From assembly GCA_000091205.1 (NCBI GenBank), contig AP006489.2: a stretch of 64,000 bases of DNA. One strand, given 5' to 3'. The position numbers and the translations under genes were made by a program. The stretch is from Cyanidioschyzon merolae (lineage: Eukaryota). The notes beneath the pieces were generated by a model. That model did not search any database. It had not been told where the DNA came from and was given only the letters and a program-made list of their open reading frames with translations. Below are positions 1 through 60,556 of the stretch, piece after piece; position 1 is the first letter of the stretch, and each line of letters opens with the position of its first letter.

Positions 1-700
1 GGAGTATACAAAGCCGGGTGGGCTCTTCTGCGAATGAACTTGTATTGCCGGAAGCAGCGCGCATTCGCGAACTTTTTCAATGAGTTGAGCGCCCTGAAAG
101 AGGATGAAAGTCAGAGGCTTGTAATAGCGTACGGAGCAGGGCGCTGGATGACCCAAAAAGGTACTACACCAGCTCCAACGACAAGAACGTACAAAGAGTG
201 TGCACGGCGTTTTGTCACAGTACCTGTAGATGAGTTCCGAATATCGTATACACACCATGAACTGGGACGTACACTTCAAAGGGTCGAGATGGAAAAGTGC
301 CAGGGGAGTCCTGAAGACATAGCAAAGTACGGACCGCTGCCGGAGGTGCAAATGGAGAGGAGGACAAAAGTGCGAGGGCTACTCGCATTCGTAAGTACAA
401 CCAACGACGGCAAGAAACGTATGGAGTTTGTGAACCGAGACTTTAACGCCGGCATCAATATCAGGAGATGCGCGGTGATGGAGAAAAGGCCTCCACAGTA
501 GACAAGAGAGAATTTTAAAGGACAACTGCTCAAAGTGGAACTATATGAGAAACAATTGGAACCAGTCGTAAGTGGCCGATCCAAGAAGACGGGGAGGCGT
601 CTGCACGTCAGTTCGAGACTGCTTGTCTAGGGCGGGTTTATCGCCACCACTGTGCACCGCTGGCGGCGGTCGACTTTTGGAAGGTATTCGCTAGAGGTGC
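1..700 (+). mobile_element. TnpB/Fanzor-like element, copy A (3' portion; truncated by window start)
   Basis: ORF 34-501 is ~85% aa-identical to ORF 55723-56451. C-terminal motif KRMEFVNRDFNAGINIRRC matches the TnpB/Fanzor RuvC-III consensus (RDxNAAxNI). Nucleotide homology to copy C continues past the TAG at 502-504, through an in-frame tail ending ...RRLHV..LV near 633, into ~60-100 bp of conserved non-coding sequence. Confidence 0.55.
34..501 (+). CDS. TnpB/Fanzor-like nuclease C-terminal domain ORF (copy A); premature TAG relative to copies B/C
   Basis: Homologous ORF; degenerate zinc-finger region (TRTYKECARRF, second Cys of the CxxC lost) followed by the RuvC-III-like NRDFNAGINI. The stop at 502 replaces GAA TGG of copy C. 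Confidence 0.5.
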   Translation: MNLYCRKQRAFANFFNELSALKEDESQRLVIAYGAGRWMTQKGTTPAPTTRTYKECARRFVTVPVDEFRISYTHHELGRTLQRVEMEKCQGSPEDIAKYGPLPEVQMERRTKVRGLLAFVSTTNDGKKRMEFVNRDFNAGINIRRCAVMEKRPPQ

Positions 701-22799: not shown

Positions 22800-23720
22800 T
22801 CAAAAGGCGAGCTCGAAACTCATGACCAACTACCTCCGCACTACGGTGAGGATGCTCTTCCGATGCAAATCAGCAGCAGTTTCTTATTCGAAGAGTTTTA
22901 GTCTAGGCTGCAGATTTGAACGGAACAGCCAGTGACCTGTTAGCGCTCTCAGCAGCACCCTGTATTCAACGCTACAACGCCGCTATGATTGCGCGATGCA
23001 AAGAACGAACCAAAGCACTTCAATGTGATCGTGCTCATGAAAAAATGCTTTGGCAGGGCGCCCTGCATCGGAACAGAAATCATTCTTTCTCTTTAATATA
23101 TAAAAGCGAGGCATGAAGAGGGCAACTACCAAGGTTTCACATGACGACATTGATGCTTTGTAACATTGAATACATTATAGAAAAACTTCTGCGCTTTTCA
23201 CACCGTTTGACTGATGATAAAAACATAATACGAGATATCTTTCACCGAAGAAGCCTTTGCAGATAGAAAACTCGCAGATAAACAAAATCGGAAGCCGGGT
23301 AACGATACAGCAAGCAGTAATATTCACTGTGCAATAACCGAGATTTTAAAATCACTAGTCCTTCGACACAGATCCCGACGGACTAGGCGTGACGGACTCA
23401 CACATCTCTGAATTTGAGTGGAAATTCGATCTGAGCGACAATTCTACATCAGCGACAATGCCGTCAGGACTACCAAAACCCCTCGTAGGCAAACTCAACC
23501 GCAAGTTTGAATTCGACAAGGTCCGCGCAATTTACCACAGCATGCAAGCCATTAAGGAAAGCTGGGCATTTACAAAGCAGGTCGCTTGTGATTTAATGAT
23601 ATAGGATTAAAACAGACCATCAAAAAACTTTTGTTACGAAAGCGGTAGCCCACTGAAGAAGTGAGTTACATCAGGGTGCATCCCGCTCCTCAGCTCGCGC
23701 GCTCTCGACGCAGAACACAC

Positions 23721-26700
23721 TCAGAAATATCACAAAAAATAGAACACGATTACCCTTCACCAACGACCCAGGAAAACCATTCCTAGTGTATCCATATGCC
23801 TCTCCAGCTTTCCCGGACTCTGAACCATGCCATGCAAGTGCCCTGCTCCAGGCGGGATTTCAGCGCCGCCCCTCTTGGCCACTGAATTGGGTCTATCGCA
23901 AGTCCTCGCCATTTCAGCACGATGCCCACAACGGGCACTGCAATACTCCCACCAAAGCTCGCTCGACACAAGCTCGCTGTACGCTCCAGGACCAGCAAAC
24001 ATTTCGGGTTGTTGATTGGCCCGTCCGGCTCGGCGGAGAACGTGCTTCCGTGCACTGTTGCTGGCGATATCACACTATGACGAGCTTCTCACTTTCGATT
24101 GCCTCGCAATGCGACGTTCGGTCAGCTTGCCGCCCAAGATCTCGTGGCATCCGACTCTGTTTCAATCTCGCCTTCTCCAGATGCTGCAGCCTACGCCTTC
24201 GCACGTGATGGATCTATGCCGTCCAAAGCGCATCGATGTAAATCGTACTAATCGGTTCCTGCACGCGTTGTACGCTCCCGTCGAAGGAGAGGGAGAGCAG
24301 CCCGCACGCGCCCCAGCACCTCCAGCGCCATAGACTAACACAAAACCACGCGACTTGTCGGCCATTTACTTTTCTAACTCACTGAACTAGTATATTCTCA
24401 CGATTCCTGCATATACAAATCGGTAGATGTTGGCGACCCCAGCGCTGTTTCAAGTACCCGGCCAATGTTCGTTCGTATACGACATTTGGACACTCAGGCA
24501 CTCTCTGAATCAAGCGCACGGGGGATCCGTTTCTGGTCAATCCGGCGCGCAGAACGTCGGGATGGGCCCTGAAGCCGTCATTCCGCGTGCCGGTACGCCT
24601 CGTTGAGTCGACCATGCCCGGCTCGCGATAATGCCGAGCCCCGGAGAAGCTGAGTTGCTCCATCTGATTGCCGCACAGCTGTTTGCATGCGTCCTTTCAA
24701 TTTAGGGGCACGGCGGAAGCTACGGCGTTCTTCATACAGGGATCCACGCCCGCCACAAAGACTGTCCCGTAAGCTACCATGCACGATTGAGAACGAGTCT
24801 TGTTGCTCGGCTCAGCTCAGGGTTTCACAACGTGCATGCAGCCTGGTATCCCGTAGGTCTCCGTCGCCCCTGTAAAATTCTTTCCATTTCCTCCCCGTAA
24901 CGAAGCAACCCTGAGGGAGCTCCGGCAATGCTCCATACGAAGCTGATCGAAAGCTTCGTAATTACCGGAAGAGAGGAGGCATAGCTCGCCGCGGAAACTA
25001 TCTAGTATGAAACGAATATGCCTACGGTAACATGGCAGGCCTTGATATGAAATATGGGAGTACTTCGAACGGACGCTTGAGGAGTCTTAGGCGCTCGCAC
25101 ACAGTGAGGGAGTTTGCGTTGCTATGGAGGGCTTCCTCGAAGAAAGCGCAGTAGCTCGTATGCAAGGAAGCTAGGCATCACATTTCAACCATCCCCTCTA
25201 TGGGTCGTGCGTCGGTCCGACCCCGCGAGCAATACGATGAGCCTGCGCCCCCACAGTCGGCTCTCGCGATCGTTGCGTTTTCCCTTCTGCGCTTGCTACG
25301 AACTCCATCTCGTCCGCCCAGAGCAGCTCGCCTTTTAACTATAAAGATACCGCTAGAAACTCATCCATCAGTCCCCTCTTTCCTGGGTCAGTGAATTGAG
25401 GGTACATCGCCCACAGGGTGCGGTTCATGAAGCGCTCGAGAGTGGCCGCATATTTTCTTCGGTTTTTGACGATAGTTTGATACTTTTTGGCACAGCGCGG
25501 TAGCTTTCTTTCGTTGCCCACATACAGCGACGACGCGTCAAAGCATTCTGCGATTCATGTGTGTAGCCGCTCGTCCTACAATCAGGCCGTGCTGCATATT
25601 GCGTTCAGAGCATCAGTTGCGCGTCGTCGCGCGAAGTCTTCATCGAGGAACTCCAGAAGAACGTGGACACCATGGAGTCCTATGTCGGAACTTCCGCAGA
25701 CCGTTGCTTGACCAGGCGGCTCAAGACGAGAGAGGCTAGGCGCGCATTATTCGGGTAAGGAGCTTCTCGAGCCTTCACGACGTCCCGGATTTCGCGTTTT
25801 GGAAGAGCCTCCCCGTTGAAGTGTGTTTGTCGGGAGACCTTGGCAACGGTTTCAGACTGATATTTCCGCTCCGACAGCTTTCCTTCCTGTACCACTTCGT
25901 CCCGTTTTCTGAAGGCTCTTCCGCTTCCTTGTCTGGTGGTCCCTCGCCCTTCTCCTTGACTTGGCGCGGCGGCAGAACTGTTGCCGCTATATTCCATATC
26001 CAGGTTTTTCGTCGGGATTCAGACAAACTAGGTGGATTCTAGCACTGCCATTCGCCCGCTCGATGGATCTATGTATCTAATTCGCTCCGAGTACACTTTC
26101 GTCAGTGCTTCCGTGGCAAGCACAAGCATGAGCCGAGGCGCACCTCCTCGCTCGCTCACACGAACCGCAAGAGATGCAACAAAGCAGTTCATGGCGAAGA
26201 AAACAAAGAGGGACTTGTCGAACAACGATCTCATGGGCGCGAGCCACTTCTCTATTGATCCGTGAGCGTAAGAATGGAATTTGGCACCGGAGAAGAAACA
26301 GTCGACTGGATTAAACCATGGAGAATGGGCTAGTGCGAAGAGCAGCTCCACGAAAATCACAGATGCGTACCCCTTGACCACCTTTGGGTTATGGAAATCG
26401 AGATCGTCTCAGAACAGGACAGAAAAATGTGGAAAGAAGGCACCACAAGTGCTTCGACGAAGAAAGAGCTTTTGAGTGATCCAGTCCATTTGGGGATATG
26501 TGGGCGATCGCACGACTGCATTTCCGCATGGGTTGGTGTTGTCGCCATTCTCGCTTGTCTCATTACTAGGAAGATGGTCCTCGCTGGGGGCGCGCTTTTT
26601 CGCTCGTCTATCCGAGTCTCTTCATAACCAACCGTATCAACGGCGCGTAAATTTCCCGTCCTGTGGCTTCATTGAAAGTTCTGCTCTGAACACATATGCA

Positions 26701-26981
26701 GCGGAAGGAATTGAGGAGAAAGTCGAGCAGATTAATTTCTATATCATCTGACTCGGGTGCACGGCGTTCAGGATAGGGGCTACGAGAAGGGTGGTTCATC
26801 CACCAGCTGACGGCAGGGCGACTTGCAGTATACATGTAGAGACATTTTGGCCAGCTTCCAGTACCACCACAAAGGCTATCCGCGAATTTTTTGCTCAGTT
26901 TAAGGGATACATCTTTGTGTTGAATTTCTGCGAAAAAATCAAAAAAATACAAAATGACGCGCTGGTGTAGGGGTGCAGGAT
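23721..26981. repeat. left arm of a 3261-bp inverted repeat (x maps to 56833-x)
   Basis: Every ORF in this arm has an identical-sequence partner on the opposite strand in 29852-33112. Nucleotide spot checks at 24301-24360 and at both boundaries are identical. Confidence 0.85.
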
Positions 26982-29851: not shown

Positions 29852-32800
29852 ATCCTGCACCCCTACACCAGCGCGTCATTTTGTATTTTTTTGATTTTTT
29901 CGCAGAAATTCAACACAAAGATGTATCCCTTAAACTGAGCAAAAAATTCGCGGATAGCCTTTGTGGTGGTACTGGAAGCTGGCCAAAATGTCTCTACATG
30001 TATACTGCAAGTCGCCCTGCCGTCAGCTGGTGGATGAACCACCCTTCTCGTAGCCCCTATCCTGAACGCCGTGCACCCGAGTCAGATGATATAGAAATTA
30101 ATCTGCTCGACTTTCTCCTCAATTCCTTCCGCTGCATATGTGTTCAGAGCAGAACTTTCAATGAAGCCACAGGACGGGAAATTTACGCGCCGTTGATACG
30201 GTTGGTTATGAAGAGACTCGGATAGACGAGCGAAAAAGCGCGCCCCCAGCGAGGACCATCTTCCTAGTAATGAGACAAGCGAGAATGGCGACAACACCAA
30301 CCCATGCGGAAATGCAGTCGTGCGATCGCCCACATATCCCCAAATGGACTGGATCACTCAAAAGCTCTTTCTTCGTCGAAGCACTTGTGGTGCCTTCTTT
30401 CCACATTTTTCTGTCCTGTTCTGAGACGATCTCGATTTCCATAACCCAAAGGTGGTCAAGGGGTACGCATCTGTGATTTTCGTGGAGCTGCTCTTCGCAC
30501 TAGCCCATTCTCCATGGTTTAATCCAGTCGACTGTTTCTTCTCCGGTGCCAAATTCCATTCTTACGCTCACGGATCAATAGAGAAGTGGCTCGCGCCCAT
30601 GAGATCGTTGTTCGACAAGTCCCTCTTTGTTTTCTTCGCCATGAACTGCTTTGTTGCATCTCTTGCGGTTCGTGTGAGCGAGCGAGGAGGTGCGCCTCGG
30701 CTCATGCTTGTGCTTGCCACGGAAGCACTGACGAAAGTGTACTCGGAGCGAATTAGATACATAGATCCATCGAGCGGGCGAATGGCAGTGCTAGAATCCA
30801 CCTAGTTTGTCTGAATCCCGACGAAAAACCTGGATATGGAATATAGCGGCAACAGTTCTGCCGCCGCGCCAAGTCAAGGAGAAGGGCGAGGGACCACCAG
30901 ACAAGGAAGCGGAAGAGCCTTCAGAAAACGGGACGAAGTGGTACAGGAAGGAAAGCTGTCGGAGCGGAAATATCAGTCTGAAACCGTTGCCAAGGTCTCC
31001 CGACAAACACACTTCAACGGGGAGGCTCTTCCAAAACGCGAAATCCGGGACGTCGTGAAGGCTCGAGAAGCTCCTTACCCGAATAATGCGCGCCTAGCCT
31101 CTCTCGTCTTGAGCCGCCTGGTCAAGCAACGGTCTGCGGAAGTTCCGACATAGGACTCCATGGTGTCCACGTTCTTCTGGAGTTCCTCGATGAAGACTTC
31201 GCGCGACGACGCGCAACTGATGCTCTGAACGCAATATGCAGCACGGCCTGATTGTAGGACGAGCGGCTACACACATGAATCGCAGAATGCTTTGACGCGT
31301 CGTCGCTGTATGTGGGCAACGAAAGAAAGCTACCGCGCTGTGCCAAAAAGTATCAAACTATCGTCAAAAACCGAAGAAAATATGCGGCCACTCTCGAGCG
31401 CTTCATGAACCGCACCCTGTGGGCGATGTACCCTCAATTCACTGACCCAGGAAAGAGGGGACTGATGGATGAGTTTCTAGCGGTATCTTTATAGTTAAAA
31501 GGCGAGCTGCTCTGGGCGGACGAGATGGAGTTCGTAGCAAGCGCAGAAGGGAAAACGCAACGATCGCGAGAGCCGACTGTGGGGGCGCAGGCTCATCGTA
31601 TTGCTCGCGGGGTCGGACCGACGCACGACCCATAGAGGGGATGGTTGAAATGTGATGCCTAGCTTCCTTGCATACGAGCTACTGCGCTTTCTTCGAGGAA
31701 GCCCTCCATAGCAACGCAAACTCCCTCACTGTGTGCGAGCGCCTAAGACTCCTCAAGCGTCCGTTCGAAGTACTCCCATATTTCATATCAAGGCCTGCCA
31801 TGTTACCGTAGGCATATTCGTTTCATACTAGATAGTTTCCGCGGCGAGCTATGCCTCCTCTCTTCCGGTAATTACGAAGCTTTCGATCAGCTTCGTATGG
31901 AGCATTGCCGGAGCTCCCTCAGGGTTGCTTCGTTACGGGGAGGAAATGGAAAGAATTTTACAGGGGCGACGGAGACCTACGGGATACCAGGCTGCATGCA
32001 CGTTGTGAAACCCTGAGCTGAGCCGAGCAACAAGACTCGTTCTCAATCGTGCATGGTAGCTTACGGGACAGTCTTTGTGGCGGGCGTGGATCCCTGTATG
32101 AAGAACGCCGTAGCTTCCGCCGTGCCCCTAAATTGAAAGGACGCATGCAAACAGCTGTGCGGCAATCAGATGGAGCAACTCAGCTTCTCCGGGGCTCGGC
32201 ATTATCGCGAGCCGGGCATGGTCGACTCAACGAGGCGTACCGGCACGCGGAATGACGGCTTCAGGGCCCATCCCGACGTTCTGCGCGCCGGATTGACCAG
32301 AAACGGATCCCCCGTGCGCTTGATTCAGAGAGTGCCTGAGTGTCCAAATGTCGTATACGAACGAACATTGGCCGGGTACTTGAAACAGCGCTGGGGTCGC
32401 CAACATCTACCGATTTGTATATGCAGGAATCGTGAGAATATACTAGTTCAGTGAGTTAGAAAAGTAAATGGCCGACAAGTCGCGTGGTTTTGTGTTAGTC
32501 TATGGCGCTGGAGGTGCTGGGGCGCGTGCGGGCTGCTCTCCCTCTCCTTCGACGGGAGCGTACAACGCGTGCAGGAACCGATTAGTACGATTTACATCGA
32601 TGCGCTTTGGACGGCATAGATCCATCACGTGCGAAGGCGTAGGCTGCAGCATCTGGAGAAGGCGAGATTGAAACAGAGTCGGATGCCACGAGATCTTGGG
32701 CGGCAAGCTGACCGAACGTCGCATTGCGAGGCAATCGAAAGTGAGAAGCTCGTCATAGTGTGATATCGCCAGCAACAGTGCACGGAAGCACGTTCTCCGC

Positions 32801-33112
32801 CGAGCCGGACGGGCCAATCAACAACCCGAAATGTTTGCTGGTCCTGGAGCGTACAGCGAGCTTGTGTCGAGCGAGCTTTGGTGGGAGTATTGCAGTGCCC
32901 GTTGTGGGCATCGTGCTGAAATGGCGAGGACTTGCGATAGACCCAATTCAGTGGCCAAGAGGGGCGGCGCTGAAATCCCGCCTGGAGCAGGGCACTTGCA
33001 TGGCATGGTTCAGAGTCCGGGAAAGCTGGAGAGGCATATGGATACACTAGGAATGGTTTTCCTGGGTCGTTGGTGAAGGGTAATCGTGTTCTATTTTTTG
33101 TGATATTTCTGA
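29852..33112. repeat. right arm of the 3261-bp inverted repeat
   Basis: Reverse complement of 23721-26981. Outer boundary tcagaaatatcac; inner boundary gggtgcaggat. Confidence 0.85.
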
Positions 33113-34618
33113 TTGTATTATATTTCAACCAGGCGCTTGCGACTCGACAACTTACATAATCCTTTCGGTTCCCTGATAATGATTTAGAAAAAAATTTTTT
33201 GAGCCTTTTTGCAGCCCAGAAGATCGAAAAAGTGCTGCGTGCTCCAATCCACGGGATTCGTCCGAGCCTGGCAGAAGCATTGAACGGTATGAAACTTGCT
33301 CGCTTATCAGTAAAAACTTCTATACGGTCTCTCTGGGTGTGAGGAATTTTTTCTTTTGTTCGTTAGTGTGATGCTTTGCATGGTGTTTCGCCTTCAGCAC
33401 TTGGGAAGTGAGCTATGGTCGGGAACAGCGTTCGCAGCATCAGAATGAAACCGCGAATTCATTTAGTAATATTCTCTGCCACGTAGCTGTTCGTCAGGCG
33501 TTGCGAAAATAGGTCACCGGTGGAATTTGTGAATGTTGCATTTTCCGAGATGATTTTAGTCGCCGAATACAGCAGCCACTTGAAGACCTCATGACCCAAG
33601 GGTGTTAGAATCGATATCTTCAAGCAAGAAATTTACGCGCATGGTTTTTGCAGCGACTCTGTCTGCGTTTACCTTCCTGGTCGGATATTCCCGCTGGGAC
33701 TCTATCTATCATGAAGTGGTGCCTCTTGCATATTCTCAAGCCAAAGGGAAGGGGAGCATGTGAATAGTGGTGGTGCTTGGAATATGTTCAAGATTTCATC
33801 AGGTATTTTCCAGTGAACCCAGGTCACAGGGCCCACTATCTCATTTGCATACGGCCAGTTATCCTGGAAACACTCCGCCGCAGTTTCAATTTACAGGGTC
33901 CATGATTTGATCTATAGACTGCGAAAGCTCTGTGGCAACTTAAGCGAAGCACAACAAAACTCGGGAACCTAGTTATCGCTTATCTAATGAATTGACCACG
34001 ACGCGTCGCATGGACATCAAAGTTTGTTGCCTTCTGCAAAATGGAGCACTTGCTAAAGAGCTCCTGCAGCAATTGATACTCGGAAAGGTGAACAAAAACG
34101 CTGTGCGCTCCGCGCATCATAACTCGAGTTGCTAGGAAATGCGCATCTCAGCTGTTTACAATAGCATCACCGTATAGTTCGCTGAATCTATATTTCACTC
34201 ATCTTGGGATGAGAACAGCAGCCCCTTTCCTCAATTGTCGAGAGGCTAGGTCGGCAGATGTCGCCTGACAATTTCAAAATTACATGGTCTCAGAAATGAA
34301 CTGATATACCTTCCAGCAGTGCAACAGAGCCTTATCGGAGACTTCAAATCAAAGCGCACGCACAAGTGTGAGCACCTCTGCTTGGGTGCTCAGCTCGACA
34401 GGGCACCTTTGCGGTAGAGAGAGACTCAGCGCTGGCTGCAGTAAGAGCGAAAGCGTTCGGGATATATTACAGAACAAGACCTTCGCCCGGGCCTTCCGAT
34501 TTATTGCAAAGAAGATGGTCATGTTTTCGGGCTTACAACCATGTGCTGATTTCATTTGCAATTCAAAATCGTTGCACATGAAGAAGAGAGGTAAATGCGT
34601 TCATAAAGTTGATATCCA

Positions 34619-48478: not shown

Positions 48479-48978
48479 ATGAAGCGCGCAGGACGTCATT
48501 TTCCTTCAGTCGATGAGACTTCCTTCGTACGAAACGGTCGATGCCTATATGGGTATTCGTGGAGAGGGAGCTCGATTTACGTACGATCGAGCTCGAAGAG
48601 AAAGAACTCAGCATCTGCTCAAGCTGCAGTGGACTATTCGGCGGCCTCCTTTTTGCTCGTAGGTATTGGCATGTAAGTCGAGGATCCTGGAGGCTCGTCA
48701 TCACCGGCTGAAGAAATAAAACGAAAAAATCCTCTTCTTGCCCACCGTCGCGCGAAGAAGTGCAAGCGGAGAAGAAGAAGAGTGGATATAGGCCGGAAAA
48801 TGCTTTTGCCTGTCAAGACGATGACGAGACTGTTTTGTTAGAGAGGGTGCGAGTTCTGAGAATCTTTGCACAGATGAGTTCATCCAGCGGCAATAAATGC
48901 AAGGTGTTCATGAACCGAGACCTAAACGCCGCCATCAATATCAGACAATGTGTGCTGCTGAAGACGAGACTCGAGTAG
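48479..48978 (+). pseudogene. diverged TnpB/Fanzor-like copy D (3' part). Exon-like blocks at 48479-48673 and ~48712-48978, with a putative intron starting at GTAAGT (48674).
   Basis: Frame 48712-48978 encodes ...REEVQAEKKKSGYRPE...RVRVLRIFAQMSSSSGNKCKVFMNRDLNAAINIRQC, which aligns with copy A (EMEKCQGSPE...KVRGLLAFVSTTNDGKKRMEFVNRDFNAGINIRRC). Upstream block MKRAGRHFPSVDETSF aligns with CARRFATIPVDEFRTSY of copy C. ORF 48760 starts with GTG, not ATG. Confidence 0.45.
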
Positions 48979-51900
48979 CTGGTGGAATCTAACTTTGTGC
49001 TCAAGCCTTTCAGGCTCGAAGAATTTAGGGAAAAACTAATGCTGGCAGAAAGCGTCCTGTCAAAAAAGCTGGGAAGCGCCAGTGGGTGAGTGTATATTCA
49101 CCCTACATGATCAGGGACATTTTCTGCATCACAAACAACGTATGTTGAAGCGGTCGGTATACTCAGAGCCATGATTTCTGGAACACCTTAACACACATGC
49201 TATGTTAGTTTTGCTTGTTTTCTCACGGCCGGTCGGCTCCAGGAATGTAGTCTTTCCATTAGAGAAAACCTGCGGAGAGAATTCGTGCTGTCTCTGCTAA
49301 CTTGGGCAAAATGGCTTACATCTACAAGTGAGTCACTCTACAGCCTCCAGACGAATTAACCACCCATATAGCAGTCCTTATCCTAAACAACGCTCGCCCA
49401 AAACAGATTGCATGAAACTCCTTCTGCACGACTCTCTCATAATCATTCCACCCCATCCCATATGATCTCCTAGCAATGCTACAAAAGCAGCCAAAAATGT
49501 GGAAGGTTTCAGTATCGTTGGTTCTATCGGAGTTGAACAGATTCGGAATGATAAACGGAAAGACGCGCTCAAAACGGAGAGCTTCGAGCTCCGAATAACA
49601 AGCACTACCGACTTTGTATTTAAACGCAAACAACAACTATAGTTGCCACGAATGTTCGTCTCCCTCGAAGAGAATTCATTCGCGAGAATAGTAATACTTC
49701 TATTTGGGTGCTCAGAGAGGGCAAACCTCTGTCTTTAACGCATCGACACGGGAGCATGACGAATATATCAACCAAAGCCGCAATGTGGTCGTGTGGTCAC
49801 CTACAGATCGCCAAACGGACATGATCGTTCAGTCCCTAGCCCTTCCTCGAGACACATTTCATGGCTTCTCTTTCGCACATTCTTGTCGTCTGCTCCGAGC
49901 CAATGTCGCTTTTCCTCATGTAACAGCTGTAAAGGAGTACCCAGCTCAGATCGACTTTGAGCTGCGTTTTATACGGACCTATTCTCCCCGGTCCGATCCA
50001 GACCATGCCGTCTTCTCTACTCTTAAATGCCATATCCATGCTCAAAAATGACAAGCGGACTCATTTGCATCCATGGAACCGATATATGAAGGACGCCGTC
50101 ATGCATCGTATGGCACCTCTTCGGTGGAAAGCTCGCTCAGCATCTGCTGCATTTACGCTCCGCGCCAGTCCTTCTTCGTCGGGGTTCTGGACGCAAAGCG
50201 TTTACGTGTCCACATTCGCCTGAAAATTTTTAATCAAAACTTCGATCGACAAATGATGCTCTAGACATAAGAGACAACACAACGAAGTAGTAGGATAAGG
50301 GCTTTGGATACATGCATCTTAGGATACTTAACACGTCGCCGCGCCAGGTCTGCGATCGGAATATCTACAGCGATGGTATCAAAACGTGGCAAACCACTCT
50401 CACATACCGAGACCGTATCCGCGTCGGTCTCGAGCTGTTCATGAAGCGCACCGTGTAGCCGTTCTAGCCTCACCTAGCAGGCCGAGACACGGAGGGATCA
50501 GCGGAAGGGATCCTTGTGTGTCGATAAAGGCAATCGACGTGCTGGTCCTGGCAGTGGAGGTCGAGATGGCAAGGTGTCGGAAGAGGATGTTGCACAGAGT
50601 GCGACAGTCGCATCCGATCGTCCGAGCTCACCGTGTTGTTCTCCACCACAGAAATATGCACGTCGTATTCAAAGAGTTTTCAGCACCTTGATGCACCCCC
50701 CTTTGCAACTTCCGGCCCGACGTTTTCCCCGAACAGAGCCTTCCGGAGCAGATCAGGTTCTCTTTCCGAATGCGAGCTATATCGCGTATCCAAGCTTCTA
50801 TTAGATAAGCCTCTCGTGTGTCAAATCAAGACTCGCCTTATCAGCGTAGACGCTTCCGCCCCGAGCGACATTCTCAGCGAAGTGTGGCTGGTTTCTGCGG
50901 GCAAGTGTGGAGAATACGAACACTTTCGCTAAGAGAATAGAGGGTTCGCTCATGTTTTCTGGTTTCCAGACGGGAATGGAGACAATACTAACACAAACAA
51001 TGTATACTTTCGGAATATCAAACTGCACGTACTTCGTGGGACCTATGTCTGAAACAGTCTGCGAGAATCTTTCTGACCCGTTCAGGATAATTGATGAGAA
51101 GAGTGGACAGTGTGTTTGCATCTCAGGCATAAGAGCACGAACGGCCTCACAGTACCTCTGAAGGAAGATAGCGAAGCCAAAGTTCTGAACGGATAGCAGA
51201 TAAAAGTTTCTGGCTGTTCCTGGGCTCGGGATCATAGAGTCTGTGGTGTTTCGGAGCGGAGGAGCCATACAACCAAAAGTAATGACAGCGTCAGGACCCA
51301 GCTCGACGCTCAAGAACACTGTATTGACCTGTGGAAGCCTTGCACGATTTATTCAGAGAGTAAACGATCGCTCAAGTTCCTAATGCGTACGATCCTTGAC
51401 AGAAATAAATAAAACAATGTTGGGGTCAACGTCCGCTTCCATTGCACCGACGGAGGAAGCGTCCATATACCCATTAGTTCAGTCAGTTTGAAAACGGAAA
51501 GAACCGAGAAGTCGCTTCATCTGGTGGTAGGCGATGGCGCTGAATATGCTCTGGTGCGCAAAGCCTGCATTCTGGCTCCTGAAACTAGAGCATTCAGTAA
51601 GTGCAGGAACCAAGTCTGTGCGATTCCCGTCGATTATAGAAGGATGACAAACACGCCTTACGAGCGAGATTGCATGCCGAAACTGGAAGGCGAGTTCAAC
51701 ATGAAACAGAGGCGTTTGTATACGATGGTCTACAGGAGGCTGATCGAACATCAGACTGCGAGGAAATCGAGAATGAGGAACCTGCTTTTTGATGATTCCA
51801 GCAGCAACAATGCGTACCAGCACATTCTGCAGCGAGCATTGATCGCCTAGATCATTTTCCGGAAATTTCTCCTGCTTCCCGGGCGTTCAGTGGCCTTGTA

Positions 51901-53498: not shown

Positions 53499-54323
53499 TC
53501 AGGTGCGCTCTTGGGCCAAGCATGAAGCTATATCGTCCGTTGAAAACTCCCGGCGGTCGTTCGATTCGCAAGCACCTTCCCTTATTCTATAATACGCAGT
53601 TGTTGTGTCCTCGTCCACGAATCCAAAAATTACGCTGGATTTTCGTGACCCGGCCTGGCGGTCTGTAGAATGTGTACTCGCGCTGGAGTCTGCGACGTGT
53701 CTGTTTTTAACAATACCTTCGATATGGGAGCTCATGCGCAAAGCTTGATCAAGATTGCTCAACTTGAGCATCGCATGCATAGGGACGGCAATCACGACTT
53801 CAGGCTCTCTACGAGACGTAATTATCCGTTCTTCAGTGCGAGTCTCCGACTGAGGTGACAGGGCGTTGATCGCTCGGCCAGAAGGCGGCGACCCGACAAT
53901 GCAGCAACGCACGTGAAAGCAGGCACGTTCACTCCCCAGAATGCACTGCGCAGAGTGTAGCTCCTGGACCATGGAGTCCTCCTCGAACAGAGGCCCTAAC
54001 AAGCCCGTGGGAAAGGTTGCCGAATCCGAATAAACCACTTCGACATTGGACCAACACCGAAGTTTTGTTAAATCTGCATATACTTGGTAAAGCGCAGCGT
54101 ACCAGCGCTCTGGAGGCGAGTCCACACAGCTCTTCGCAAGACGAATCGCATCGTGCCCAGCCAGGAAACTGCTCCGGTCTCGTTCCGCAACACTGTCGCT
54201 TTCCACCTCTACCATAAAGAAAAGCGCGCTCTCGCAGGTTCGAAATGCCGGACTTTCCAGCCCCAACGATTGACTCGGAAAACGTCCGATTCGATGAACC
54301 TGACTGCTTGGAGCCGCACGCAC
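53499..54323 (-). CDS. hypothetical protein
   Basis: 274-aa ORF immediately flanking the palindrome, no recognisable domain. Confidence 0.25.
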   Translation of the reverse strand: MRAAPSSQVHRIGRFPSQSLGLESPAFRTCESALFFMVEVESDSVAERDRSSFLAGHDAIRLAKSCVDSPPERWYAALYQVYADLTKLRCWSNVEVVYSDSATFPTGLLGPLFEEDSMVQELHSAQCILGSERACFHVRCCIVGSPPSGRAINALSPQSETRTEERIITSRREPEVVIAVPMHAMLKLSNLDQALRMSSHIEGIVKNRHVADSSASTHSTDRQAGSRKSSVIFGFVDEDTTTAYYRIREGACESNDRREFSTDDIASCLAQERT

Positions 54324-54332
54324 GCACGGACA

Positions 54333-55310
54333 AAACGCCTTTCAAAAGAAAAATGCTGTCGCCGGCCGTGTACAGGAGTGGCGAATGGTGCGCCCTAGAC
54401 TAGACATCTCCAACCGACGTGCAGACGCCTCCCAGTGCTTTTGGAGCGGCCACCTACTACTGCTTCCAATTGTTTCTCATATAGTTCGACTTTGAGAGGT
54501 TCTCTTACAAAGTTCTCTCTTGTCCATTCTGGAGGACTTTTCTCTAGTACCGCACATCTACTTTTATTGATAGGGGCGTTAAAGTCTCGATTCACAAACT
54601 TCATTCGTTTCTTGCCATCACTGGTTGTACTTACTAATGGAAGTAGTCCACGAACTTTCGCCCTCCTTTCCATTTGCTCTTCCGTTAGCGGTCCGTACTT
54701 TTTTATATCCTCAGGGCTCTGCTGACACTTTTCCATCTCGACCCTCTGAAGTGCACACCCCAGTTCATGGAGTGTATAGGACGTTCGGAACTCATCTACA
54801 GGTATCGTAGCGAAACGCCTTGCGCACTCCTTGTACGTTCTTGTTGACGGAGCTGGCGTAGTCCCTTTTTTGGACGCCCAGCGCCCTGCTCCGTTTGCTA
54901 CAACGAGCCTCTCACTCTCGTCCTTCTTGAGGGCGCTCAACTCATTGAAAAAGTTCGCGAACGCCCGCTGCTTTTCACAATACAAATTCATTCGCAAACG
55001 AGCCCACCGGGGCTTTGTGCATTCTTTCCAAAGGCTCTCGTCATGAGCAGCGTGAATTTTCATAACCTCTCGAAAAGCTTCAATGTCGGCTCCCCGGCTC
55101 GTCACATGGCTGATCGCTTCCAAATTCCCTTAACACCTGAATTCGATGTCTCACTTTTCTTCCTTGCATTCATTATACGGGATTCTCGATGGTATCTCGC
55201 TCATGAGAGCATCAACAGACTTATGTCTTTCTGACGTAAGTTACCATCAGTACCATCTTCCGCACGCTTGGGTGCTGCGACAGTTATGATATTTGTGTTC
55301 CAAGGGTCCA
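54333..55310 (-). mobile_element. TnpB/Fanzor-like element, copy B (left arm of the palindrome)
   Basis: Reverse complement of 55536-56513 at ~99.9% (one aa difference, T vs I, in RSKS[T/I]GRR). Confidence 0.6.
54395..55123 (-). CDS. TnpB/Fanzor-like nuclease C-terminal-domain protein (242 aa), copy B
   Basis: ...TRTYKECARRF...KKRMKFVNRDFNAPINKSRC. The RuvC-III-like motif carries A>P and I>K substitutions relative to the consensus. Confidence 0.55.
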   Translation of the reverse strand: MEAISHVTSRGADIEAFREVMKIHAAHDESLWKECTKPRWARLRMNLYCEKQRAFANFFNELSALKKDESERLVVANGAGRWASKKGTTPAPSTRTYKECARRFATIPVDEFRTSYTLHELGCALQRVEMEKCQQSPEDIKKYGPLTEEQMERRAKVRGLLPLVSTTSDGKKRMKFVNRDFNAPINKSRCAVLEKSPPEWTRENFVREPLKVELYEKQLEAVVGGRSKSTGRRLHVGWRCLV

Positions 55311-55356
55311 CACCAACGACAAAGTCCTTACCCTGCACCTCCTGCATCGCAGGATC

Positions 55357-55477
55357 CGCACTCTTCTCATCTACATGTTTCGCCTAGCCGTCTACAAGGT
55401 TGTACTTCTCCAACTCCTGCGTCGCAGGATCCGCATCCTTCTCATCTACATCCTTCGCCACGGGCGAAGCCGAGGAC
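55357..55477 (+). repeat. two 46-bp near-identical direct repeats (period 75 bp) at the centre of the palindrome loop
   Basis: ctcctgcatcgcaggatccgcactcttctcatctacatgtttcgcc (55357-55402) and ctcctgcgtcgcaggatccgcatccttctcatctacatccttcgcc (55432-55477). Confidence 0.8.
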
Positions 55478-55535
55478 GGACCAGGAGGCGGGCCCGACAG
55501 CGCTGGAGGTGCAGAAGAACGATTTCTCGTTGGCG

Positions 55536-56513
55536 TGGACTCTGGGAACACAAATATCATAACTGTCGCAGCACCCAAGCGTGCGGAAGATGGTACTGAT
55601 GGTAACTTACGTCAGAAAGACATAAGTCTGTTGATGCTCTCATGAGCGAGATACCATCGAGAATCCCGTATAATGAATGCAAGGAAGAAAAGTGAGACAT
55701 CGAATTCAGGTGTTAAGGGAATTTGGAAGCGATCAGCCATGTGACGAGCCGGGGAGCCGACATTGAAGCTTTTCGAGAGGTTATGAAAATTCACGCTGCT
55801 CATGACGAGAGCCTTTGGAAAGAATGCACAAAGCCCCGGTGGGCTCGTTTGCGAATGAATTTGTATTGTGAAAAGCAGCGGGCGTTCGCGAACTTTTTCA
55901 ATGAGTTGAGCGCCCTCAAGAAGGACGAGAGTGAGAGGCTCGTTGTAGCAAACGGAGCAGGGCGCTGGGCGTCCAAAAAAGGGACTACGCCAGCTCCGTC
56001 AACAAGAACGTACAAGGAGTGCGCAAGGCGTTTCGCTACGATACCTGTAGATGAGTTCCGAACGTCCTATACACTCCATGAACTGGGGTGTGCACTTCAG
56101 AGGGTCGAGATGGAAAAGTGTCAGCAGAGCCCTGAGGATATAAAAAAGTACGGACCGCTAACGGAAGAGCAAATGGAAAGGAGGGCGAAAGTTCGTGGAC
56201 TACTTCCATTAGTAAGTACAACCAGTGATGGCAAGAAACGAATGAAGTTTGTGAATCGAGACTTTAACGCCCCTATCAATAAAAGTAGATGTGCGGTACT
56301 AGAGAAAAGTCCTCCAGAATGGACAAGAGAGAACTTTGTAAGAGAACCTCTCAAAGTCGAACTATATGAGAAACAATTGGAAGCAGTAGTAGGTGGCCGC
56401 TCCAAAAGCATTGGGAGGCGTCTGCACGTCGGTTGGAGATGTCTAGTCTAGGGCGCACCATTCGCCACTCCTGTACACGGCCGGCGACAGCATTTTTCTT
56501 TTGAAAGGCGTTT
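55536..56513 (+). mobile_element. TnpB/Fanzor-like element, copy C (right arm of the palindrome)
   Basis: Inverted copy of 54333-55310. ORF 55723-56451, then a conserved ~60-bp 3' tail ending 55 bp upstream of the ATG of the LRR gene. Confidence 0.6.
55723..56451 (+). CDS. TnpB/Fanzor-like nuclease C-terminal-domain protein (242 aa), copy C
   Basis: ATG-initiated, and ~85% aa-identical to copy A with many synonymous nucleotide differences. Confidence 0.55.
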   Translation: MEAISHVTSRGADIEAFREVMKIHAAHDESLWKECTKPRWARLRMNLYCEKQRAFANFFNELSALKKDESERLVVANGAGRWASKKGTTPAPSTRTYKECARRFATIPVDEFRTSYTLHELGCALQRVEMEKCQQSPEDIKKYGPLTEEQMERRAKVRGLLPLVSTTSDGKKRMKFVNRDFNAPINKSRCAVLEKSPPEWTRENFVREPLKVELYEKQLEAVVGGRSKSIGRRLHVGWRCLV

Positions 56514-56566
56514 GTTTTCGGGGTGTTTCCGGGCTCAACAAGAAACGCTCGTTCCCATTTAGATGC

Positions 56567-59500
56567 ATGTCGTTGCATAAATCGGACTCGAACCAGTTGC
56601 TGGTCAGTCTGGTAGTGGAGCACGCGAAACGGGCGACACCACCTCCCGAGGAGAGTGGAATTCTCTTCGACGAGAAGGGTTCGCAAATAAGCGAGCACCA
56701 TGCTGCACCCGCATTGGAAGGAAGCTCTGCAACGTGGCCTTTTGTGCCCGCAAGGCCTAGAGAAGTTTCGTCGGGAAGCGATAATGCTTGTGAAAACGGC
56801 CGCGCTCTCAGAAGATTGCACCGGACGCCTTCACCGGAAGTAACTGGCTCTGGTTCACCGACTAGTCACGCCAACGTAGTCGGAACCTGTTTCGTCACCG
56901 GGTTTGTGGTGGAAAAAGACGACTCTGGAACGGACGTAACCGGATGCGGAGAGTCACGTGCGTCCGAGAAAACATCAGGTCGTCCTTTTCGTCGTGAGGT
57001 TACAGCTGCAGACTCCAGGCTGAACCTGAGCGGGGAGCACTTGGCCTGTGTGTCGCTTGAGCAGCTTCGCTCTCTACCTTCGCTAGCCGCGCTGAATGAA
57101 ATATCTCTTGCATCGAATAGTTTACGAAGTGTCGACTTGCGTCCACTTGCTTCCTGCCGCTCGCTGCAGGTCCTGTTACTGAACGATAACTTACTGGAAC
57201 GCATTGACTTGACGCCATTGGCAAGTTGCTCGCAGCTTGAACGACTCTGGCTGCATAGGAACAAGCTGAAACATATCGATCTGAGTCCGCTGGCCATAAG
57301 CGGAAGTGCGTTGAGGTCGCTGTACCTCAGCCGCAACGAACTGCAGGAGATCAGTCTTGCTCCTCTTGAAAAGTGCTCGAAGCTTCGCGCTTTGCAGTTA
57401 GAGGGCAACCCAAACCTCAAAGAAATAGACGTCACCCCACTGTTTGCGTGTAGAGAGTTGAGCAGTTTCGAAGCCCCCCCTCAGGCTCGGCTTATAGTTC
57501 GTGAACTGGCCGCACTGGAAGTGCAGCGCCGCAGTTATCAACAAGATTGCAACTCACTGGCCAATGTAGAGTCCAGTGAGAGCGCTCGCACCGCTGCGAT
57601 CATGCCGAGCAAACTTGTGTTACCAAAGGTATTCCGCCGCAGAGGTATTGTCTTACACTGGATCAGAGAGGCATTGCCTGACGCGAACTTGAGGGATTTA
57701 ACTGGGCAACGATCTTTGAAAGAGAACAGTGTGAATGCGGAGCTGCAGGATGCCGAACGCGGCGAGGGAATTCAGACGAACGCTTCTATGAATATAATTG
57801 CACCTGCATCCGAGGAAGCACTCTCGTCCGTGGCCGAGTTGCAAACGGGCCCCACGGCATCGAGGAACTTGGAGTCAGTGCAAGAGGACAAAACGCCTCT
57901 TTGCGCTCTGATTGTCGGGATGACCACGCATCGCCGAATATCAACTTGTCGGTTACTTGAGCAGTCGGGGACGTTGAGGGTCCTCCAATCTCCTTCAGCC
58001 GCAGCTGCACTGGATGCTTACATCAGCGCACCAGACGGGATTGACTTGATTCTGATGGAACCTGCTGAATATGAGGTCTTTTCCGAACAAGCGCAGGCAG
58101 CCTCCATTGAGATCAGCGTGCCGGTGGTGGCGGTTGGTCCTCCGGAGTTTGAACGCTCTGGCGTTTTTCGGCGGTGTATTGCCATAGGTGCAAGGGGTTT
58201 CATATCTTTTCCGTTGGATAATCGTGATGCACAGGCCTTGACGGAGGTTGCCCGCAGCTTTCGCGCATCTCGCCAAACTTCTGCTTCGCAGGTTTTGAAG
58301 GAATCCAGTGTATCCGAGTTGCTTTTGCCTACACAAGAGGTTCGAGCGGATTCGACAAGTGTTAGCCGCGATCTCTCGCCGATGAGCATGACGAACGGAA
58401 GCGATGCATCCAAGTATGGGGCAGGTATAGAGCCTGACTCCAAATGGGTCCCGTCCTGGTGGCAAAACTCCGATTCCATTCGCAAGGAAGGAAACTCCAG
58501 TCCGGCAGCCGTTTCCGACCGGATGGACACGTTTCTTTCGAAATCGGAAGGTGTCGAGGATATAGCAGAGGAGTCTTCTACGTACCGTTTTATCCAGCGC
58601 GCTGGAATTGGACACCTCCGCTCGGGGAGTCCTATATGCCGCAGTGGTTCCGAGAGCTCGCAATTTGCTTGTGAAAGAGCTGAATGGGCCAGAGTTGAGG
58701 CTATTTTCGCGCATCGAGATAAGCGACCGAGTCGAGAGCCTTGCTTCCAACTGCAGTTCATGCAACATTGCTCGAATCCTGCCACGCTTTTGATACCGAC
58801 CGATGGTTACCATTCTGCTGGCCTGGAGAGATTTGCTGATATCGCAGCAGTCTGTCGACTACCAAAAACCAGTGCTACTGTGCTGTTTCTACGTGTGCTT
58901 TCCCACCAGGATAAGCTCGCTAACAGCGGTACAAGCTCGATATCCAATGCTTTAACGCGATCAGCGAGCGAGTCGGTGTCTTCGAATTGCTGGTTGCGAA
59001 ACATCCATGTAGATGCCTTTTATCACTTTTACCGTTGCAAGCTCGCACCGATCCGATCACCGCTTGAGCGCTTCTATAATGTAATTGCATCTTCATGGCC
59101 TGGAAGTGACATACACGATTCATCTTCGTCCCTGTATGCGGAAGGAAAAATACGCAGACTGAAAGAATCCAGGGCAAGGTACGTTTCGAGATACACAATA
59201 ACCCTTTTGATTCAGGAGCTGGTTTATCGGAAGCTTTGTGTCGGGAGAAACGCTTCTGGCGTTGCAGTCCCGTATCATGCAGCGAAAGCAAATCAGGGAC
59301 AGATGAGATCTGCCCGGTATTCGTATCAGGGGAAGAGCTTTCTGTCTTCGTCAATCAATCAGAGCGGAAGCGCATCAGCGATGGAGTCCGCACACTTCTC
59401 CAGCAAGAACGGAGAAGCTGCGAGGAATGCTTTCCTTGCCTTTCGGGATGAGGTTTGTGAGGTTCTCCTTACCGCCTCCGTCGCAAGTGCATGTGTCTGG

Positions 59501-60556
59501 TTTCATCTAGGTGGCGGAAATCGAAACTATGTTCCGCTATCGATTCTGCGAAAGGTGCGCTTTGCTGAGGCAATCTTCGCGGCTGAACGCGGCATCATTG
59601 TGGATAGTTTGATGGAAATGCTTACCGGGAATGGCATCGCGCTGGTTGCCCAGAAGGAGCTCGAGACCGTCTGGAACTATAACGCACGCACTGGGACTGC
59701 AACATCGGAGCAACTAGCGTCGCGAGATGCTCCGAGCTTTGAATGCTCGATTCCTTCTGTCTCTGGATTGTCTTCCTCGTTCCCAGAACAGCAAAGCGAC
59801 GGCGCTGTCACGCAGGCGCCTTCAGGGGCTACCGAGTCCAGGGAGCAGATAGCGGGTGCAATACGTTCTTCATTTCTTCCGGACACATTTGAGTTTTCGA
59901 AATGGTGCAGAAAATTCTGTATTTCGCGAGAGGCTGCCGTATCCTACTTCCTGGATCGGGGTTCGCTCGTTCCCAAGGCAGTAGAGCAAGTGTTGAATCG
60001 TTTCCGTGGATTATCGCTCGTACAGAAACCCGCGTCCAGTGAGCACAGCGCTGCAACGCCTCAGCTCCAGGACGAGAAGACGGTTCCCGAGGATCAGAAT
60101 CTGGCACCGTTCAGCAAGTTAGGAAACGCTTCCGTAGGTGACTCTCTCAGTCCGTCGGCTTTCGTGCACCTCTTCCTGGCGTTGTGTGATCCTGGCAACG
60201 AGAAAGCACTGCACATCTTTTTTGATATTATGGATCTCGACATGGATGGGTTTATCTCAGCGGCAGATGTTGCGTACTTTTATCGAGAAAAATGCGAGAT
60301 CGCGTTTCGAGAGGGCCTAGTGCTCGCGTCTGCAAATAATCTATGGGCGCAGTTGGTAGATATGTGCAGAACGTCGGCAAATGATCCCAAACTTGAATCC
60401 AAGGGCATTACACTGAAAATGCTTCGGGATATCGGAGAGAGGCGTCGCTCCAGTTTCATTCGCAATGTGCTTTTCAAGGACGATGGCATGGCACTGGTAG
60501 ATATTCAACAGACTTTGCGGTTGGAAAACAGTCTCGCGCTCCTGAGCCAACCGTAG
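56567..60556 (+). CDS. large leucine-rich-repeat protein with a C-terminal EF-hand-like motif
   Basis: Tandem LRRs (LxxLxLxxNxL: LRSVDLRPLASCRSLQVLLLNDNLLERIDLTPL...). EF-hand-like loop DIMDLDMDGFISAADVAYFY near the C-terminus. The ORF is open from 56501, so the start at ATG 56567 (MSLHKSD) is inferred. Confidence 0.65.
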   Translation: MSLHKSDSNQLLVSLVVEHAKRATPPPEESGILFDEKGSQISEHHAAPALEGSSATWPFVPARPREVSSGSDNACENGRALRRLHRTPSPEVTGSGSPTSHANVVGTCFVTGFVVEKDDSGTDVTGCGESRASEKTSGRPFRREVTAADSRLNLSGEHLACVSLEQLRSLPSLAALNEISLASNSLRSVDLRPLASCRSLQVLLLNDNLLERIDLTPLASCSQLERLWLHRNKLKHIDLSPLAISGSALRSLYLSRNELQEISLAPLEKCSKLRALQLEGNPNLKEIDVTPLFACRELSSFEAPPQARLIVRELAALEVQRRSYQQDCNSLANVESSESARTAAIMPSKLVLPKVFRRRGIVLHWIREALPDANLRDLTGQRSLKENSVNAELQDAERGEGIQTNASMNIIAPASEEALSSVAELQTGPTASRNLESVQEDKTPLCALIVGMTTHRRISTCRLLEQSGTLRVLQSPSAAAALDAYISAPDGIDLILMEPAEYEVFSEQAQAASIEISVPVVAVGPPEFERSGVFRRCIAIGARGFISFPLDNRDAQALTEVARSFRASRQTSASQVLKESSVSELLLPTQEVRADSTSVSRDLSPMSMTNGSDASKYGAGIEPDSKWVPSWWQNSDSIRKEGNSSPAAVSDRMDTFLSKSEGVEDIAEESSTYRFIQRAGIGHLRSGSPICRSGSESSQFACERAEWARVEAIFAHRDKRPSREPCFQLQFMQHCSNPATLLIPTDGYHSAGLERFADIAAVCRLPKTSATVLFLRVLSHQDKLANSGTSSISNALTRSASESVSSNCWLRNIHVDAFYHFYRCKLAPIRSPLERFYNVIASSWPGSDIHDSSSSLYAEGKIRRLKESRARYVSRYTITLLIQELVYRKLCVGRNASGVAVPYHAAKANQGQMRSARYSYQGKSFLSSSINQSGSASAMESAHFSSKNGEAARNAFLAFRDEVCEVLLTASVASACVWFHLGGGNRNYVPLSILRKVRFAEAIFAAERGIIVDSLMEMLTGNGIALVAQKELETVWNYNARTGTATSEQLASRDAPSFECSIPSVSGLSSSFPEQQSDGAVTQAPSGATESREQIAGAIRSSFLPDTFEFSKWCRKFCISREAAVSYFLDRGSLVPKAVEQVLNRFRGLSLVQKPASSEHSAATPQLQDEKTVPEDQNLAPFSKLGNASVGDSLSPSAFVHLFLALCDPGNEKALHIFFDIMDLDMDGFISAADVAYFYREKCEIAFREGLVLASANNLWAQLVDMCRTSANDPKLESKGITLKMLRDIGERRRSSFIRNVLFKDDGMALVDIQQTLRLENSLALLSQP

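Follow-up and report, generated by a model that had tools for sequence, protein, structure and literature searches.

A candidate guide-RNA scaffold at the right end of CMe-1A, a Fanzor1 transposon of the red alga Cyanidioschyzon merolae

Every Fanzor tested so far has proved to have a guide RNA (omega-RNA, or fRNA) encoded in a corresponding place at the 3' end of its gene (PMC10432273, PMC10530073). The Fanzor RNAs studied by Jiang et al. come from non-coding sequence on the 3' side that adjoins the right end of the transposon (PMC10530073); the omega-RNA of SpuFz1, the Fanzor1 protein of the element Spu-1 of Spizellomyces punctatus (Saito et al. 2023; PDB: 8GKH), is ~75 nucleotides (nt) long, takes a 14-15 nt guide from the flank and also occurs in ghost loci devoid of the open reading frame (ORF); and that of GtFz1 from Guillardia theta (PDB: 9CER) overlaps 17 codons of the gene (PMC10432273). 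The prokaryotic IS200/IS605 elements with TnpB (e.g. ISDra2) have a comparable layout, in that the scaffold extends over both the nuclease gene's 3' end and the right end of the element, and the guide is derived from the flank. In the thermo-acidophilic red alga Cyanidioschyzon merolae a single Fanzor1 family has been described, namely CMe-1A, with ~150 copies that are ~80% identical to their consensus and ~3 kb in length, without terminal inverted repeats or determined target-site duplications, and with a 5' part of 635 bp that constitutes another, short element, TE-N2_CMe (Bao and Jurka 2013, PMC3627910). That description predates the discovery of the omega-RNAs and does not cover a 3' tail, hairpins, a sharp right end, ghost tails or flank tags; C. 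merolae itself is without mention in Saito et al. (PMC10432273, main text and supplements) and in the main text of Jiang et al. (PMC10530073). Here we analyze a stretch of 64,000 nt from the C. merolae contig AP006489.2 (hereinafter the window), which harbors several decayed copies of CMe-1A, and present evidence that the non-coding tail behind their Fanzor1 genes is conserved throughout the family, ends at a sharp element boundary, and, together with the end of the ORF, probably encodes a guide-RNA scaffold.

The window contains three pieces of one repeat family (A, B and C) along with a fourth, divergent remnant (D; Table 1), and each of the C. merolae 10D proteins BAM79581, BAM79595 and BAM79583 is matched exactly by one window ORF, which identifies the strain as 10D. 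The loci that we recovered form a repeat unit of ~3.3 kb with a pairwise identity of ~77%, and their 5' ~650 nt are also found alone. Since the host, length, copy divergence and separate 5' part agree with the published description (PMC3627910), which likewise has a Fanzor1 ORF, old copies and no terminal inverted repeats, the window element is the already known CMe-1A, as matched to that description rather than to the Repbase consensus. Fragments A, B and C are dead copies of it. Copy C ends in a TAG codon at 56449-56451 and retains the motifs VGVDSGN, VDEFRTS and NRDFNAPIN, the reading of which in three-frame translation needs a frameshift and passes through internal stops. The 5' part of copy B reaches 199 nt beyond that of copy C, into a KHEEKKEA... 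repeat region, and copy A has an in-frame stop near 498 ahead of its terminal TAG at 628-630. Together B and C make up an inverted repeat with arms of 991 nt (54333-55323 and 55523-56513) that are 99% complementary, and its 199-nt spacer is further copy B sequence.

Table 1. Coordinates of the CMe-1A copies, their tails and related features (numbering of the window or of the metagenome contig named)
Feature	Contig	Position	Strand	Basis
Copy A, partial Fanzor1 pseudogene, truncated where the window starts	window	1-630	+	translation; alignment to C (82%)
Copy A tail	window	631-688	+	covariance model match 613-688 (55 bits); hairpin survey
Fragment D, more divergent Fanzor C-terminal remnant, NRDLNAAINIRQC	window	about 48860-49105	+	direct repeat; sequence
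Copy B tail, identical to copy C tail	window	54334-54394	-	inverted repeat; alignment; covariance model match
Copy B, same pseudogene as copy C, inverse orientation	window	54395-55522	-	inverted repeat; direct repeat; sequence
Copy C, 5'-truncated, frameshifted Fanzor1 (CMe-1A) pseudogene, RuvC half	window	55523-56451	+	three-frame translation; homologues; profile of relatives matched to Fanzor1 structures
H1, small hairpin AGAU-N5-GUCU, ending at the first base of the stop codon	window	56437-56449	+	model alignment; 86.5% paired
H2, conserved stem GGCG...CGCC with hypervariable 5-11 nt loop	window	56452-56466	+	pairwise identity; pair counts
Conserved single-stranded linker ACUCCUGUACA (family consensus ACUACUGUACA)	window	56467-56477	+	pairwise identity 0.83
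H3, terminal hairpin AGCAUUUUUC-UUUU-GAAAGGCGUU	window	56489-56512	+	hairpin survey; folds
First 15 nt of copy C flank, TGTTTTCGGGGTGTT (putative guide source)	window	56513-56527	+	analogy with the 14-15 nt SpuFz1 guide (PMC10432273)
Ghost tail	L019	4036-4111		model match
Ghost tail	L021	390-465		model match
Ghost tail	L026	441-516		model match
Ghost tail	L029	1254-1321		model match
Further tag site, unrelated location	L070	3227-3241		
Further tag site, unrelated location	L077	7427-7441		
Further tag site, unrelated location	L041	3710-3724		

The affinities of the protein emerged only with a diverse profile. Pfam searches with the window ORF and six family proteins matched no family, and PDB searches with a single sequence or a shallow family profile returned chance matches only. 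At 60-80% identity, 205 homologues are present in a large protein database, and an exhaustive profile search recovered 1463 more distant relatives, many of them 600-700 amino acids (aa) in length. A profile of 41 sequences (A5), comprising the family member P0009 and 40 relatives at 29-44% identity, matched the Fanzor1 proteins in PDB, namely PpFz1 (9CF0; E-value = 9e-18), SpuFz1 (8GKH; 1.1e-11) and GtFz1 (9CER; 1.5e-6). The alignment to the structures spans the WED strand and the three RuvC motifs (D, E, D), with the family consensus motifs GADPGNTN, VDEFRTS and NRDFNAAIN placed against IDPN, DEYKTS and NRD of SpuFz1; the RuvC-type motif of Fanzor has been given as D-x-[TS][TS]...RD (PMC3627910). 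In the region of the C4 zinc finger, which lies between the E and RD motifs, the CMe copies read HHELGC...KC, without CxxC pairs. PF07282 was matched weakly in one relative (E-value = 0.002, below the cut-off), and AlphaFold2 on a shallow alignment gave an unusable model (predicted local distance difference test score of 32). Judged by these sequence comparisons, the protein is a true Fanzor1. Imperfect 25-aa repeats (KHEEKKEAGPAMQEVEDNDLVVG...; window 55333-55459, minus strand) precede the RuvC-I motif, after the WED strand and ahead of the first catalytic aspartate, and their number varies between copies.

The first-pass annotation of this DNA, made from the letters alone, had proposed that a non-coding tail of about 60 bp is conserved after each of the three TnpB-like ORFs and that its abrupt end marks an element boundary. 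We examined this across 80 related loci from one metagenome scan, which together with the window gave 72 distinct 3' ends, or 65 after removal of near-duplicates. A tail of 58-62 nt follows each window copy (that of copy C extending over 56452-56512/13 and reading as the first-pass annotation gave it), and in the family conservation runs 58-72 nt past the stop codon. A covariance model built only from other contigs found exactly three significant matches in the window, which are the tails of A (613-688; 55 bits, E-value = 8e-13) and of B and C (54334-54412 on the minus strand and 56434-56512; 52 bits, E-value = 5e-12), the next-best match having an E-value of 0.14. Among 57 distinct copies the mean pairwise identity stands at 0.68-0.84 over the last six bases of the element and collapses directly after ...GGCGTT, dropping from 0.84 to 0.39 at position +1 and reaching the baseline of 0.25 by ~+15. 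In the window this places the boundaries between 56512 and 56513, 54334 and 54333, and 688 and 689 (+/- 1-2 nt). Thus, both proposals are borne out, and the element boundary at the tail end is well supported, the homology of ~65 independent copies breaking off at one and the same base.

It had been cautioned at the outset that recent duplication might simply account for the likeness of the tails. For B and C this holds: as arms of a palindrome that is 99% identical over 991 nt, their tails agree uninformatively. However, copy A, at 18% divergence from C in the ORF, still has the same tail and end point (identity of 513/627 or 82% in the ORF, 42/65 or 65% in the tail, and 22/67 or 33% in the next 67 columns), and ~65 distinct copies at ~77% mutual identity share the tail, with model E-values of 1e-11 to 1e-12. 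Recent duplication or chance as the sole source of the similarity is therefore refuted for the family, applies only to B versus C, and is given practically no credence here.

The family consensus of this region can be written as ...GGAGACGUCUUGUCUAG / GGCGGG-UUU-CUCGCC / ACUACUGUACA / C(C/G)Gnn(GGCG) / hairpin / GGCGUU^. Read as a scaffold, it would comprise, in order, a hairpin at the stop codon (H1), a conserved stem-loop (H2), an 11-nt single-stranded linker, a variable linker, and a terminal hairpin at the boundary (H3). H1, whose family form is AGAC-N5-GUCU, lies within the last ~45 nt of the ORF, a part that is also retained by the ghost copies described below. In H2 the pairwise identity of the stem strands is 0.83-0.88, as against 0.50 for the loop, which varies in both sequence and length, and the four outer pairs are standard in 65-72 of 74 copies (about 88-97%). 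The 11-nt linker, at 0.83, is conserved to the same degree as codon positions 1-2, third codon positions being at 0.74. The 3' strand of H3 (GAAMGGCGUU) terminates at the element boundary. Of the 65 copies, 71% have an H3 of 9 bp or more; the corresponding values are 8% for shuffles, 2-5% for length-matched windows from the ORF or flank, and 26% for the antisense strand. Two subfamilies are distinguished by its form: AACGUUUUUC-UUUU-GAAAGGCGUU, to which window copies B and C belong, and GGCGUCGUUCGA-CUU-UCGAACGGCGUU. Despite eight position-by-position differences and a 3-nt displacement of the 5' strand, each of the two yields a stem of 10 bp or more with an identical end point. Other variants also keep the stem (CGUUCUA...UAGAACG and CAUCGUC...GGCGGUG). 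Copy C has one A.C mismatch in H3 relative to the family, and copy A retains H1 and H2 intact, with its terminal hairpin decayed to 5 bp.

Several measures indicate that these hairpins have been maintained, and on the sense strand. The mean folding energy is -24.2 kcal/mol for the sense strand versus -20.1 kcal/mol for the antisense strand, and G.U pairs are very frequent at four stem positions, where they alternate with A-U and G-C. The first-pass annotation had suggested examining the covariation of the tails across copies. In a model-guided alignment of 85 hits, pairing is seen in 83% of the cells, and sliding the partners by 1-3 columns lowers this to 36-52%. Double changes occur at 15 of the 22 pairs, where shuffles give 9.0 +/- 1.8 (0/500 as high), and the covariation score is 0.129 versus 0.110 (1/500 as high). 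The covariation among the tails is moderate: the double changes exceed those of the shuffles, but many of the pairs are invariant and the alignment was fitted to the model.

A terminal hairpin that stops exactly at the boundary is also what a DNA-level signal could look like. In IS200/IS605 elements a subterminal hairpin at the right end works as a DNA signal. The tail might then be a transposition end only, with its hairpin serving as a one-strand signal for an HUH, IS200-IS605 or rolling-circle transposase acting in trans. The element has neither terminal inverted repeats, nor target-site duplications, nor a second long ORF (PMC3627910 and the present loci), and many copies are 5'-truncated with intact 3' ends, all of which speaks for such a signal. 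However, the alternation of frequent G.U (G.T in DNA) pairs with A-U and G-C is typical of RNA helices, the H2 stem and the 11-nt linker lie 25-60 nt inside the end, which is more than an end signal requires, and all Fanzors tested so far have an omega-RNA there (PMC10432273, PMC10530073). We regard a purely DNA-level role as unlikely; the DNA-end and RNA roles of the tail are mutually compatible.

The extent of the conserved unit can be gauged from four loci that carry a solo ghost unit (Table 1), in which only the last ~45 nt of the ORF and a well-preserved tail remain (41-80 bits). They start at GGAAGCGTCTGCACG and are located ~780 nt upstream of the Fanzor ORF region, within otherwise unrelated conserved sequence. 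As the ghosts keep the last ~45 nt of the ORF, the functional unit is suggested to start ~15 codons before the stop. This points to an overlap with the gene similar to the 17 aa of GtFz1, one that is drawn from the extent of conservation and not from RNA ends. Directly behind each ghost tail, ~20 nt stand out as far more variable than the neighboring sequence in both directions.

These ghosts also bear on two further explanations of the tail. It could be a plain 3' untranslated region of the Fanzor mRNA, holding for instance a signal for 3'-end formation, as its position directly after the stop codon, its hairpins and its U-runs would allow. No such signal needs to coincide exactly with a transposon boundary, however, and the ghost copies keep the tail without the ORF, making this highly improbable. 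Alternatively, the tail might be a 3' stem-loop of the retroposition type, used by the reverse transcriptase of a partner element without long terminal repeats, as in the stringent pairs of long and short interspersed elements. The 5' truncations with intact 3' ends and the lack of terminal inverted repeats would suit this, as would the first flank bases, which are often short G/T-rich repeats (TGTTGTTG, GGTGGTGG, (TGC)n, (TG)n). Against it stand the lack of poly(A), of target-site duplications and of a reverse-transcriptase ORF in the element, and the confinement of the tail in 742 kb of related contigs to sites behind Fanzor ORFs or in the four ghost units; we consider it very unlikely.

An omega-RNA, by comparison, is fitted by the position, size, two-stem and linker layout, conservation, sense-strand pairing and ghosts of the tail. 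Hence, it appears probable that the tail and the last ~45 nt of the ORF encode the guide-RNA scaffold of Fanzor. The tail would be the right-end region of CMe-1A, a Fanzor1 transposon without a transposase gene of its own; its transcript would bind the Fanzor protein, and the guide would be roughly 14-15 nt of flanking DNA transcribed past ...GGCGUU. For copy B the corresponding putative guide source would be 54319-54333 (its tail, the reverse complement of that of copy C, being placed at 54333/4-54394), and the flank of copy A opens from 689 with CGCTAGAGGTG. Being pseudogenes, all three window copies could yield an RNA that acts only in trans, and their tails are relics that could function only with the protein of intact copies elsewhere.

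Certain observations weigh against a guide-RNA scaffold, and the first-pass interpretation of the tails is supported in part, more firmly for the element boundary than for the omega-RNA. RNAalifold gave zero consensus pairs on a plain alignment of the 65 tails, because of indels and the 3-nt register shift between the hairpin subfamilies. The fold z-scores are weak, with a mean of -0.92 and ~-2 to -3 for the best of the family; those of the window copies, +0.64 and +0.09, show folding no better than in shuffles. The alignment used for pair counts was fitted to the model structure, and most conserved pairs never vary and are therefore uninformative on structure. Rfam gave no match at E <= 1 on either strand of 54200-56700. 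The loop of H2 is hypervariable, while the loop of stem-loop 1 in SpuFz1 contacts the protein; in the same complex the distal part of stem 2 is without protein contacts (PMC10432273). A one-strand terminal hairpin suits a single-stranded-DNA transposition signal equally well, and in place of an established target-adjacent motif there is only the TGA that precedes the left end in 6 of 10 copies.

Of the characterized systems, Spu-1 offers a close parallel on several counts: it is likewise a Fanzor1 element with two stems and a short linker, the second stem being next to the guide position, and it has ORF-less ghost copies of its RNA region and no transposase within the element. Terminal inverted repeats of 30 nt and a target-adjacent motif (CATA) set Spu-1 apart from CMe-1A. 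Its omega-RNA and the putative RNA of CMe-1A share no detectable sequence similarity, and the hypervariable loop of stem-loop 1 is a feature of CMe-1A. RNA expression has been shown for Spu-1 and is a prediction for CMe-1A. With the IS200/IS605 elements CMe-1A shares the absence of terminal inverted repeats and target-site duplications. In contrast to CMe-1A, their scaffold is longer, at about 130-150 nt, and they have the TnpA Y1 transposase. Their insertions adjoin a short motif that doubles as the target-adjacent motif, for which the TGA in the left flank of CMe-1A is only suggestive. Overall, a tail of this kind is to be expected in a known transposon family, of which the window holds decayed copies, and it is likely to be a further member of the omega-RNAs.

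Taken alone, the window is ordinary: it holds a known transposon in three decayed copies, each with its right end. If the tail is an omega-RNA scaffold, it would represent a compact one (about 75-110 nt) with a defined guide position, serving the Fanzor1 of a thermo-acidophilic red alga. With its genetic tractability and tiny genome, C. merolae would allow the in vivo role of Fanzor and the multiplication of elements without a transposase to be tested directly.

Beyond the boundary, some copies share short tags. Over the first 14 flank bases, 20 pairs of copies agree at 11 or more positions, against none in three control windows further out and a column-shuffled expectation of 1.1 (maximum 5 in 500). 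The tag TGTTTCCAGGGGTG is present in at least 7 copies from both hairpin subfamilies and additionally in the ghosts of L021 and L026, and the flank of copy C at 56513-56527 carries a diverged form of it. The tag TGTTGTCGCTGCCGT is found in 3 copies, and CGCTAG.GGTG in window copy A (689-702), L068 and L034. Beyond +13 to +16 the flanks are unrelated, and the tag-sharing pairs are internally no closer than others (78.4% versus 76.9%). In 806 kb searched, TGTTTCCAGGGGTG was never encountered as an unoccupied target, all 8 of its 8 occurrences being directly after a tail. The tags may be longer right-end variants, remnants of right-end/left-end junctions, short read-through, or guide-length segments copied along with the element. 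It is distinctly unlikely, in our estimate, that the tags of 13-15 nt in dispersed and mostly 5'-truncated copies are guide segments that travelled with the element. Were it so, the insertions might have been copied from an omega-RNA-bearing transcript ending ~14 nt past the right end, or might have arisen by one-sided repair of a Fanzor-cut site matching the guide of the parent; travelling guides would then explain the spread without a transposase, the lack of terminal inverted repeats and target-site duplications, and the 5' truncations.

At the other end of the element the sequence starts with TTTTTTCGATGAC. This T-rich left end (TTTTTTCGATGACAAAACGTTTCC...), present in L018, L030, L057, L062 and L073 among others, is preceded in 6 of 10 copies by the above-mentioned TGA, which may be a target or target-adjacent motif. 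No target-site duplications were seen at the left ends examined. The 5' region is a mosaic with at least three variants, and neither a transposase gene, nor a second long ORF, nor a reverse-transcriptase ORF was seen inside the element. Helitrons are marked by 5'-TC ... CTRR-3' termini and a hairpin about 10-12 nt before the 3' end; with a right end of ...GGCGTT that is abutted by its hairpin, and the left end given above, the element lacks Helitron termini. Homology between L019 (2790-7405) and L029 (3-4935) extends over at least 4.6 kb and terminates exactly at the right end. Within this shared stretch lies a portion of a gene for a short-chain dehydrogenase, encoded on the opposite strand (L019 2407-3486); a long variant of the element may carry it as a gene fragment.

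The head-to-head palindrome formed by B and C (54333-56513) has outer edges that coincide exactly with the right ends of the element, and it occupies the gap between two divergently oriented genes, one for Sen15 (53499-54323, minus strand) and one for a leucine-rich repeat protein (from an ATG at 56567 to 60556). It could have originated from two insertions or as a fold-back copy. An empty site of this insertion was sought through the neighboring Sen15 gene and none was found, the single related contig being L083. The first 540 nt of this metagenome contig are identical to the window from the Sen15 gene into the tail of B, of which only the last ~32 nt are retained before AT-rich unrelated sequence follows; L083 is probably an assembly chimera and not an empty site.

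Elsewhere in the window, a separate perfect inverted repeat of 3268 nt (23714-26981 and 29852-33119) encloses a spacer of 2870 nt, and the ORFs in and around it were without a match in Pfam. In fragment D the CMe-1A tail is not recognizable and the covariance model has no match. A different hairpin, GGGTGA-N8-TCACCC, follows the end of its ORF, and this fragment may represent a second, older subfamily.

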